This document shows positions 38,999 to 40,373 of a DNA stretch of 64,000 nucleotides, piece by piece. The position numbers and the translations under genes were made by a program. Where the stretch lies: NCBI GenBank assembly GCA_038042445.1, contig JBBTED010000027.1, positions 37,651-101,650 of the forward strand. The letters run 5' to 3'. How positions within the stretch are numbered: the stretch's first letter is position 1; each line of letters opens with the position of its first letter. This stretch comes from Candidatus Firestoneibacteriota bacterium (GTDB taxonomy: Bacteria; Oederibacteriota; D2-FULL-39-29; JBBTED01). The notes below the pieces were generated by a model. The model did no database searches. It had not been told where the DNA came from and saw only the letters and a list, made by a program, of their open reading frames with translations.

Positions 38999-39301
38999 TT
39001 ATCCGCAACAACTAGTATTTTGTAAAGTTTTAGTTTTATCTGAACCACAACCGCAAGCTGCTTCTTGTCCTGTTAGTGCTGATATCATCATAGCAGCAGC
39101 ACATCCTACACCTACTTCTACAGATATAGCTTGTGCCTGACAATTTTTCTGACAGGCTCCACATTCCATACAATCTAAAAGATGAATAATCTCAGCTTTT
39201 TTATTTCTGATTTGAAAAACATTGTGCGGACAAACTTCTATGCATCTGCCACAACCTGTGCATTTGCTTTGTTCAAGTTCTAAAGTAGTTATAGTTTTCA
39301 T
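38999..39301 (-). CDS. hgcB: Mercury methylation ferredoxin HgcB (2x[4Fe-4S] with C-terminal cysteine tail)
   Basis: CTGCGRCIEVCP and the HgcB-diagnostic DCMECGACQKNC motifs. The C-terminus reads ...CGCGSD...SCCG (vicinal Cys tail). It is immediately downstream of hgcA. The start is placed at MKTITT (39301), preceded by AAGGGGTGA. Confidence 0.85.
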   Translation of the reverse strand: MKTITTLELEQSKCTGCGRCIEVCPHNVFQIRNKKAEIIHLLDCMECGACQKNCQAQAISVEVGVGCAAAMMISALTGQEAACGCGSDKTKTLQNTSCCG

Positions 39302-39314
39302 ATTATCACCCCTT

Positions 39315-40373
39315 TTATATAAACTTCCAAACAAATTGGATTATCCAAATACTCAGTGCTGTAACTATTCCAACTGCTATCCAGGGAATTACTGTTTTGA
39401 TTTCCTGACGCACACCATTAACAGAAGTATAAGTAGTGGCACCTGTAAAATTAAGTGCAATAAACGCTGAAGCTGAAACATTAGCAGCTAAAAAAGGTAT
39501 GAACTGCCAGATGGACATAGGCAAAATTAAACTAATTACTAATGCTTGCAAAAATCCCCAAAAGGCACCTTTTGTAGTCAACCATTTCCCAGGCAAAATA
39601 TTATGCAAAACTGGAATTGCAATACCTGTAATCATAATACCAGCTATACTTAAAGCTATAGTAGGGCCAGTAACAAACCATAATATAATAGTAGCCAGTA
39701 AAACAGGTAGAAAAACAAATCGTAATTCCATAGGAATCAAAATAACTCTCTCTGCTAAATTAAATGTAACCAAACGCATAGATGAAGTAACCCTGCCAGT
39801 ATCCAAAAAAGCAGGCAAATCTTTGGCACGTACTGGTCCATAAACTACACGGAATCCTGTTTGTTTTTCAACTTCATGCGATGCAACTCCAGGTGCACCT
39901 AATTGTTGAACAATTAACCTGTGATGCTTGACTTTTTTTTCTAATTCTGATGTTTGAACACGTCTTACGATTTCTTCAGTTCCAAAAGTACCCTTACCAG
40001 CCGCACACCAGACATTAATGCCTTTAGTATCCAGAACTAAAATCCATGCATTGTCCCCTTCTAAATTTTTTCTTAAAACATCAAAACTCATACGATAATT
40101 AGCAGATACTAATACAGGTGAATTTTCATCTGGAGTACCCAATGCCCAAAGTCCAGGTGTAACAATAGCATTCATACGCCCTATTCCCCATCTGTATTTC
40201 CATTGATTCAAAGTATCATAAAAATCAAAATGACTATCTGTTTTGTATATTCTTGTCTGTGACCAAATCTTTGTCTTTTCAGACTGATCTGTACTATCCG
40301 GATATTCAATACCATTTATATCTATCCCAGTTACATTACTTAATATATTAGTTACAGCAGTTTTTCTATTCAT
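39315..40373 (-). CDS. hgcA: Mercury methylation corrinoid protein HgcA
   Basis: GINVWCAAGKGTF matches the HgcA cap-helix signature N(V/I)WCA(A/G)GK. The CFeSP-like corrinoid domain is followed by a C-terminal domain with four to five TM helices. The start is placed at MNRKTAV (40373), preceded by AAGGTGA. The longer track ORF overlaps the upstream gene. Confidence 0.85.
   Translation of the reverse strand: MNRKTAVTNILSNVTGIDINGIEYPDSTDQSEKTKIWSQTRIYKTDSHFDFYDTLNQWKYRWGIGRMNAIVTPGLWALGTPDENSPVLVSANYRMSFDVLRKNLEGDNAWILVLDTKGINVWCAAGKGTFGTEEIVRRVQTSELEKKVKHHRLIVQQLGAPGVASHEVEKQTGFRVVYGPVRAKDLPAFLDTGRVTSSMRLVTFNLAERVILIPMELRFVFLPVLLATIILWFVTGPTIALSIAGIMITGIAIPVLHNILPGKWLTTKGAFWGFLQALVISLILPMSIWQFIPFLAANVSASAFIALNFTGATTYTSVNGVRQEIKTVIPWIAVGIVTALSIWIIQFVWKFI

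Follow-up and report, generated by a model that had tools for sequence, protein, structure and literature searches.

The genes hgcA and hgcB, which encode the corrinoid protein and the ferredoxin of mercury methylation, are located on a 64-kb stretch of DNA (the window) from a metagenome-assembled genome (MAG) of Candidatus Firestonebacteria; all positions given here are window positions. The best explanation of the locus, to which a probability of about 0.85 is assigned, is that a genuine and intact hgcAB pair resides in the low-GC chromosome of this bacterium and forms the core of a six-gene unit. Both open reading frames (ORFs) occupy the positions given in an earlier note that was prepared from the sequence alone, and both are encoded on the minus strand, which that note had left unstated (Table 1). 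The identification of these genes as hgcAB is correct, but it is not new, since proteins identical to those of the window are present in GenBank as MEK6645719.1 (“mercury methylation corrinoid protein HgcA”) and MEK6645718.1 (“mercury methylation ferredoxin HgcB”), and both McDaniel et al. 2020 (PMC7438021) and Peterson et al. 2020 (bioRxiv 10.1101/2020.04.01.018762) had already counted Firestonebacteria among the hgcA-positive putative methylators. The one new element of the locus is a 99-residue, cysteine-rich membrane protein, denoted here as mem99, which is encoded between hgcC and hgcA and belongs to an undescribed family.

The ATG start codon of hgcA at position 40373 is preceded by the ribosome-binding site AAGGTG. 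A longer in-frame start, corresponding to a protein of 373–395 amino acids, is used by one ENA gene call; the NCBI call is the protein of 352 residues. HgcA scores 370 bits (E = 9.9e-111) with the NCBIfam equivalog model NF040863, for which the curated cutoff is 275 bits, and the alignment covers positions 2–322 of the 325 positions in the profile. Residues 118–130 of HgcA are GINVWCAAGKGTF, which include the cap-helix signature NVWCAAGK (residues 120–127) that had been noted earlier as defining HgcA. A search of the six reading frames of the window with the pattern N[VI]WCA[AG]GK returned this single match. In an alignment of 75 HgcA sequences the block is invariant at N120, V121, W122, C123, A124, A125, and G126, and nearly so at K127. 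A second alignment of 20 HgcA sequences agrees: the cap-helix block including Cys123 is invariant, and the NFTG-TTYTS motif (residues 308–317) of the transmembrane domain is conserved. Cys123 is encoded by the TGT codon at 40005–40007 (minus strand) and is the counterpart of Cys93 in HgcA from strain ND132 (Pseudodesulfovibrio mercurii, formerly Desulfovibrio desulfuricans).

A structural model of HgcA was calculated with AlphaFold2 from the 75-sequence alignment and has a mean predicted local distance difference test score (pLDDT) of 87.4. The model consists of an alpha/beta domain (approximately residues 40–200) followed by five long helices, which span residues 213–235, 237–259, 265–283, 288–312, and 318–351. 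The polytopic C-terminal domain proposed in the earlier note is therefore present, and the hydropathy profile agrees with it. Residues 1–205 are soluble by this measure, with a 19-residue Kyte–Doolittle maximum of 0.8; residues 209–352 are strongly hydrophobic, with several segments above 1.6. When the model was compared with the PDB library using Foldseek, the top match was the model of the ND132 HgcAB complex (9a0b_A; E = 4.7e-19, 36% identity, 322 columns), and the next matches were corrinoid iron–sulfur protein (CFeSP) structures, with a root-mean-square deviation (rmsd) of approximately 3.0 Å over approximately 126 columns.

The hgcB gene is a separate ORF on the same strand that starts 13 nt past the hgcA stop codon. 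Its product scores 110.2 bits (E = 3.3e-32) with the NCBIfam HgcB equivalog NF040864, above the cutoff of 99 bits by a modest margin. The first cluster motif is CTGCGRCIEVC (residues 14–24), with Cys14, Cys17, Cys20, and Cys24 followed by P; the second is CMECGACQKNC (residues 44–54), with Cys44, Cys47, Cys50, and Cys54 followed by Q. The additional cysteines are Cys67, Cys83, Cys85, and the pair in the C-terminal SCCG (Cys98-Cys99-Gly100). The 2x[4Fe-4S] ferredoxin with a CMECGAC motif and a cysteine-rich tail that the earlier note had described is thus confirmed. Among 82 HgcB sequences from the loci fetched for comparison, C(M/I)EC(G/S)AC is present in 80, a cysteine at the spacing of Cys67 (Cys54 + 13) is likewise common to 80, and a CC pair occurs within the last eight residues in 63. 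Cooper et al. 2020 (PMC7305189) described HgcB by three hallmarks: a pair of CxxCxxCxxxCP motifs; an essential cysteine, strictly conserved, approximately 12 residues beyond the second motif (Cys73 in ND132); and C-terminal cysteines (Cys94 and Cys95), of which at least one was required in mutagenesis. Cys67 and Cys98/Cys99 of the window protein correspond to these mutagenesis-relevant residues.

The comparison with ND132 was made through the NCBIfam equivalogs, the named relatives, and the 9a0b model. The two systems share a CFeSP-like domain with a cysteine-containing cap helix, a five-helix transmembrane domain, and an adjacent gene for a ferredoxin that carries an extra cysteine 13 residues past the second motif and a C-terminal CC pair. 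They differ in that the HgcA proteins are only about 36% identical, with different N-terminal leaders, the second HgcB motif ends with CQ rather than CP in the window, the regulator is ArsR-like in ND132 (PMC10349881) and AbrB/PrlF-like (HgcC) in the window, and in the window the regulator gene and hgcA are separated by an additional membrane ORF. The ND132 pair was defined experimentally, and the activity of the pair in the window is predicted. By homology to ND132, the CFeSP-like domain of HgcA would bind the corrinoid, with Cys123 occupying the lower axial position on cobalt (“Cys-on” ligation; PMC7305189), and the five helices would anchor the protein in the membrane. HgcB would reduce Co(II/III) to Co(I), enabling re-methylation of the cofactor; its flexible Cys98/Cys99 tail would bring Hg(II), and Cys67 would take the CH3Hg+ product. 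The production of methylmercury by this organism is a prediction from the genotype.

Certain observations weigh against this assignment. The cap-helix stretch (approximately residues 115–131) appears as a low-confidence coil in the apo AlphaFold2 model (pLDDT of approximately 63), and the helical conformation of the cap is not reproduced by AlphaFold2 without the cofactor. The CQ ending of the second HgcB motif is infrequent (Q in 3 and a residue other than P in 13 of the 82 HgcB sequences). The possession of hgcAB predicts methylation, yet the rates range over orders of magnitude.

The pair could be taken for a non-methylating paralogue, either a Wood–Ljungdahl protein of the CFeSP/AcsC type that is accompanied by an ordinary ferredoxin or one of the fused HgcAB-like proteins, since Pfam recognizes only the generic CdhD/CFeSP domain PF03599 in HgcA (residues 71–189) and the CFeSP large subunits are the only experimentally solved relatives. 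With the PDB sequences, HgcA aligns to just the final 120 or so residues of these subunits; the match to 4djd_C (E = 1.9e-12) is limited to residues of approximately 320–440 in a chain of 446. HgcA therefore shares the Rossmann-like corrinoid domain with the CFeSP large subunit (AcsC/CdhE; 4djd_C and 2ycl_A), but it lacks the N-terminal [4Fe-4S] and TIM-barrel domains and possesses a cap-helix cysteine, which is missing from CFeSP (PMC7305189), and a five-helix transmembrane domain with the HgcA-specific NFTG-TTYTS motif. The earlier note had named a best match to CFeSP/AcsC paralogues without the cap helix, or the loss of the transmembrane domain, as findings that would refute it, and neither was observed; the CFeSP gamma-subunit model NF003195 gives 76.5 bits (cutoff 306), and this over the last 120 or so positions only, versus 370 bits for the HgcA model. 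For the fused HgcAB-like paralogue, the model NF043039 reaches 200 bits, short of the 285 required, and in the window hgcA and hgcB are separate genes. A paralogue of this kind is scarcely credible. It is quite improbable, in turn, that the genes are true orthologues with another native role, such as the transfer of methyl groups to a thiophilic metalloid or to some other acceptor, and that mercury methylation is negligible or incidental in situ. Such a role would fit the connection of HgcAB physiology with arsenic-responsive regulation (PMC10349881, PMC7438021), and both the mem99 family and the AhpD-like domain encoded in the unit have ArsM-associated relatives. In the window proteins, however, every residue needed for methylation by ND132 is conserved. 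Every cultured organism tested that contains unfused hgcAB with these motifs is reported in the literature to methylate mercury (PMC7305189, PMC10349881).

An intact hgcAB pair is thus the preferred assignment, and its surroundings are those of an ordinary chromosome. The GC content is approximately 31% throughout the window, and the flanking genes include dnaX, mgsA, a ctpA-like protease gene, a 6S RNA, and a tRNA. A compositional island or mobile-element signal was looked for at hgcAB and none was found, so there is no sign of horizontal transfer. The hgc locus is chromosomal and, given the uniform composition and the housekeeping genes around it, looks native. The closest HgcA proteins beyond the species cluster of the window are only 52–55% identical. 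HgcA from another Firestonebacteria MAG is 47–49% identical, and some of the closer relatives (44–48%) are supplied by methanomicrobial archaea. The closest non-self HgcA (55% identity) is encoded at 6001–7309 of locus L001 (GCA_964604705.1), where hgcA is preceded by genes for an ArsR-type regulator and a 202-residue unknown protein; hgcB is not called downstream, yet an HgcB-like segment is found there by tblastn and is probably an uncalled small gene. The use of cobalamin or another corrinoid by the organism is weakly supported by a gene for a B12-binding radical SAM enzyme in the window.

The six genes of the unit are arranged on the minus strand in the order hgcC, mem99, hgcA, hgcB, a tusA/dsrE fusion, and an ahpD-like gene, with successive gaps or overlaps of -4, 29, 13, 38, and 20 nt. 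A Shine–Dalgarno sequence precedes each of the six genes, and no terminator-like sites were found between them. The genes constitute a tightly packed, cysteine-rich, operon-like unit and are considered a putative operon, which ends at a convergent DNA-alkylation-repair gene. The same arrangement is found in a second assembly of 93.6% identity and low coverage (L084), which was not counted as an independent locus. Upstream of hgcC, the sequence TTGACA-17-TAAAAT matches the sigma-70 consensus at 11 of 12 positions. Promoter-like sites in the region are not more numerous than the shuffled expectation, and this site is therefore a candidate promoter only.

The mem99 gene has the ribosome-binding site AGGAGG, its ATG overlaps the hgcC stop codon (ATGA), and 29 nt separate its end from the hgcA start codon. 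The protein is annotated as “hypothetical” in GenBank (MEK6645720.1), and no match to it was found in Pfam or NCBIfam. Its cysteines are arranged as C26-x2-C29-A-P-x-C33-G at the turn between the first two helices and as C87-x-C89 near the C-terminus, past a basic stretch. The AlphaFold2 model contains helices at residues 4–29, 35–54, and 58–85 and has a moderate pLDDT of 72.7. In a word-indexed search of 5.8 billion proteins, only two other sequences were related to mem99. When 1.84 billion cluster representatives were searched exhaustively with HMMER, 25 representatives were assigned to the family, nearly all of 86–107 residues. In the family alignment, the first helix is glycine-rich and ends with C-x2-C-A-P-x-C-G; it is followed by an FLHKY-like loop, another hydrophobic helix, basic residues, and finally 1–3 cysteines. 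The Cys and Gly positions of mem99 are conserved across 23 sequences. Two scans of metagenomes were also made. No relatives were recovered in the first, and one true member, L092, was recovered in the second. Two further candidates, L093 and L094, were rejected because they are ROK kinases that share the string GIGVAGFLH.

MerT and MerF are small proteins that cross the membrane more than once; their first helix carries a cysteine cluster within it or at its end, and their cytoplasmic tail has a cysteine pair past a basic stretch. By analogy only, mem99 is similarly small and polytopic, with a cysteine cluster at the end of helix 1 and a cysteine pair in its tail. It differs in its three predicted helices and in carrying a CxxCxxxC triad instead of a CC pair, and the family is linked to HgcAB and ArsM rather than to mer operons. 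The assignment of mem99 as a transporter of the MerT/MerF type was rejected: there is no match to a Mer family in Pfam or NCBIfam at E ≤ 10, and no relative by fold or by sequence in the PDB. A Foldseek comparison of the model with the PDB gave no match at E ≤ 10, a test that is weakened by the moderate confidence of the model, and the mem99 profile gave only spurious transmembrane matches to PDB sequences.

Five of the eight independent mem99 loci are tied to a metal(loid)-methylating enzyme: two adjoin hgcAB, one is placed between arsR and arsM, and two are ArsM fusions. The second hgcAB adjacency is found at L086, where HgcA (432 bits) and HgcB (126 bits) are followed 44 nt downstream by a mem99 homologue of 54% identity (1816–2079). 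This lineage is distinct from that of the window, with an HgcA that is 42% identical and a GC content of 44%. At L090 an ArsR/SmtB regulator is followed by a mem99 homologue (579–890) and then by an overlapping gene for ArsM (316 bits, cutoff 263). At L092 the mem99 module is joined through a linker to ArsM (335 bits, cutoff 263) in a single uninterrupted ORF of 372 amino acids (1093–2211). A mem99–ArsM fusion also extends in frame through a TGA at L085 (132–728), on a contig of just 728 bp. The TGA (501–503) sits where the first cysteine of the N-terminal ArsM cluster is found in L092 (EG-U-GCG versus ED-C-GCS), and for this reason it is probably a selenocysteine codon. No paper on an ArsM fused to a transmembrane module was found in a literature search. 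The bona fide ArsM loci resemble the window in these fusions and adjacencies of the mem99 module, and the AhpD-like protein of the window resembles the AhpD domains fused to ArsM selenoproteins. The window, however, has no ArsM, and the corrinoid methyl transfer by HgcA is unrelated to the SAM chemistry of ArsM.

Since the ArsM domain fused to the C-terminus of mem99 is a cytoplasmic SAM enzyme, the C-terminus of mem99 would be cytoplasmic as well, and with three helices the cysteine triad would also be exposed on the cytoplasmic face. The occurrence of relatives next to hgcAB, next to arsR-arsM, or fused to the N-terminus of ArsM suggests an accessory role. In one speculative scheme, mem99 would act on the inner side of the membrane as a thiol-rich accessory, presenting or passing on a thiophilic metal(loid), whether substrate or product. 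It is tentatively proposed, as one possible reading of the family, that its members are three-helix cysteine-rich modules, with C-x2-C-A-P-x-C-G and a cytoplasmic C-terminal Cys, CC, or CxC, that are dedicated as accessories to metal(loid)-methylating enzymes. Such a module may bind its thiophilic substrate, Hg(II) or As(III), when this is at the membrane and pass it to the HgcB tail or to the N-terminal cysteine cluster of ArsM, or may accept the methylated product.

Several results do not favor such an accessory. Three of the eight independent mem99 contexts (L087, L089, and L091) are at contig ends or beside unrelated genes, and at L088 there are unknown neighbors only. The family was missing by tblastn and by its family HMM from 83 other hgcA loci and therefore cannot be a general component of mercury methylation; it would be at most a lineage-restricted accessory. 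No similarity of mem99 to MerT, to MerF, or to any solved structure was detected in the sequence and fold searches. These same points, together with the tiny size of the family, the absence of a link in the contexts of L087, L088, L089, and L091, and the moderate confidence of a model with no detectable homology to known metal transporters, would be expected if mem99 were functionally unconnected to hgcAB, as a spurious or lineage-specific ORF or as a generic thiol-disulfide or membrane-stress protein that is nearby by chance. This alternative is on the unlikely side. A spurious ORF would not be expected to have a strong ribosome-binding site, an ATGA overlap with hgcC, and Cys and Gly positions that are conserved in 23 sequences. 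Chance proximity is opposed by two independent hgcAB adjacencies on opposite sides of the pair (upstream in the window and downstream at L086), by the two in-frame ArsM fusions, and by the arsR-mem99-arsM operon; it is very unlikely that five of eight loci would lie beside such rare genes by chance.

The first gene of the unit, hgcC, encodes an AbrB/MazE/PrlF-like protein that matches the model for “HgcAB-associated protein HgcC” with 110.2 bits (NF040962, cutoff 70) and PF04014 with an E value of 2.9e-8. The ribosome-binding site GGGGGTG precedes the ATG, and an alternative GTG start is present at 41004. Zhang et al. 2023 (PMC10349881) proposed that this gene encodes a putative regulator of hgcAB found mainly in archaea; the main text of their paper makes no use of the word “cysteine”. 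The flanks of the AbrB domain in the window protein are rich in cysteine (ETCCD, SCCK, and TCCIC). A homologue of HgcC is encoded directly upstream of hgcA in 13 of the 83 loci, nearly all from Methanomicrobiales. The comparison of the window protein with those from L013, L018, L021, L023, L028, L039, L040, L044, L046, L050, L055, L057, and L058 revealed that 14 of 14 sequences have a cysteine just in front of the AbrB domain and a vicinal CC pair behind it, and that the N-terminus is variably cysteine-rich. This invariance suggests that HgcC is a regulator that senses a thiophilic metal; more speculatively, it would be the transcriptional regulator of the operon and would sense the metal through the CC pair.

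The hgcAB loci of Methanomicrobia (Methanoregula, Methanospirillum, and Methanosarcina) also have an HgcC homologue (44–55% identical) upstream on the same strand, with the CC pair conserved. In the window the host is a bacterium of a candidate phylum, and mem99 separates hgcC from hgcA. The archaeal loci also do not contain the downstream TusA-DsrE and AhpD-like genes, save for one AhpD-like match in L028. At one Methanomicrobiales locus (L050, approximately 5638–6981), the hgcC frame runs without a stop codon into hgcA, which may be either an HgcC-HgcA fusion or simply an open frame between the genes.

The TusA-like/DsrE-like fusion protein has 229 residues when translated from the ATG at 38960. 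Its Pfam matches are PF02635 (DsrE, 1.1e-8), PF01206 (TusA, 7.5e-7), and PF13686 (1.9e-6). The gene starts 38 nt past the hgcB stop codon with the ribosome-binding site AGGAGGTG and is probably cotranscribed with hgcB. The catalytic cysteine of TusA appears to be replaced in the fusion, with LKPD in place of CPxP. The AhpD-like protein, encoded 20 nt past the preceding stop codon, contains C19-QP-C22 and a C-terminal GCGCN, and at a subthreshold level it resembles the AhpD domains found in ArsM/AhpD and MduS selenoproteins. In a speculative role, the AhpD-like CxxC protein and the DsrE-like protein would keep the many thiols of this system reduced or would traffic sulfur.

When the proteins of the window were compared by tblastn with the 83 other hgcA loci, HgcB was found in 82, HgcC in 13, and the AhpD-like protein in one, a Methanosarcina locus (L028) in which the match is approximately 1.3 kb upstream of hgcA. 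No mem99, TusA-DsrE, NifS/NifU, or DsrE2 was found in these loci, and these proteins are therefore not generally linked to hgcAB.

A cluster of nifS, nifU, a small ORF, and dsrE2 is divergent from the hgc operon, so that genes for sulfur mobilization flank those for mercury methylation. The nifS-like cysteine desulfurase, at 502 bits, falls slightly short of the NifS cutoff of 531. The remainder of the cluster would encode a scaffold protein similar to the N-terminal domain of NifU, a 57-residue multi-CxxC protein that looks like a zinc ribbon, and a DsrE2-like protein. The earlier note had also pointed to multiheme cytochromes, and within the window there are three large, consecutive ORFs with 13, 11, and 19 CxxCH motifs that match the cytochrome c7, c3, and MtrC families. 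Cytochrome b561-like (Ni_hydr_CYTB) membrane domains are part of the second and the third ORF as fusions, and an MtrC/MtrF-like domain is present in the third. The trio is a possible module for transmembrane or extracellular electron transfer in this Firestonebacterium.

Table 1. Positions in the 64-kb window of the hgc genes, their motifs and domains, and the other features discussed in the text.
Feature	Position	Strand	Evidence
hgcA, corrinoid protein of mercury methylation, 352 aa + stop	39315-40373	-	NF040863, PF03599, fold match
Cap-helix motif N120-V-W-C123-A-A-G-K127	39993-40016	-	read from sequence
HgcA transmembrane domain, residues 213-351	39321-39737	-	AlphaFold2 model, hydropathy, conservation
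hgcB, 2x[4Fe-4S] ferredoxin of mercury methylation, 100 aa	38999-39301	-	NF040864, Cys pattern
mem99, Cys-rich membrane protein, 99 aa, three predicted helices	40403-40702	-	ORF, ribosome-binding site, family alignment
hgcC, AbrB/MazE/PrlF-like “HgcAB-associated protein HgcC”, 98 aa, ATG at 40995	40699-40995	-	NF040962, PF04014
Promoter candidate, sigma-70-like, upstream of hgcC	41052-41080	-	consensus match only
TusA-like/DsrE-like fusion, 229 aa from ATG at 38960	38271-38960	-	Pfam
AhpD/CMD-like CxxC protein, 83 aa, last gene of putative operon	37999-38250	-	PF02627 (3.2e-13), TIGR00778
nifS-nifU-(small ORF)-dsrE2 cluster, divergent from hgc operon	41332-43742	+	
Multiheme cytochrome ORF	8344-9987	-	13 CxxCH
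Multiheme cytochrome ORF	10040-11989	-	11 CxxCH
Multiheme cytochrome ORF	12015-14759	-	19 CxxCH
B12-binding radical SAM enzyme	19317-20684	-	
6S RNA	34124-34302	-	97.7 bits
tRNA	58326-58398	-	

It is as methylmercury that mercury bioaccumulates in food webs, and to our knowledge hgcAB is the only known genetic marker for its microbial production. An intact chromosomal hgcAB pair with all of the motifs provides a well-resolved example for a phylum that has so far been merely listed as hgcA-positive, and the “archaeal-type” regulator HgcC occurs here in a bacterium. The locus is nevertheless a divergent member of a known system, with genes that were already named correctly in GenBank, and the advance in this respect is incremental. 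The set of accessory genes could matter more than the identity of hgcAB, in view of the routes of Hg(II) to HgcAB and of CH3Hg+ away from it. The association of the family would span two unrelated methylation systems and draws on eight independent loci. With its recurrence beside HgcAB and ArsM and its two fusions to ArsM, mem99 is a candidate for the hand-off of metal(loid)s at the membrane. If the proposed function is correct, the mechanism of HgcAB (PMC7305189) would gain in mem99 a candidate for one of two components, the “unknown source” of Hg(II) or the “exogenous thiolate” by which CH3Hg+ is released.

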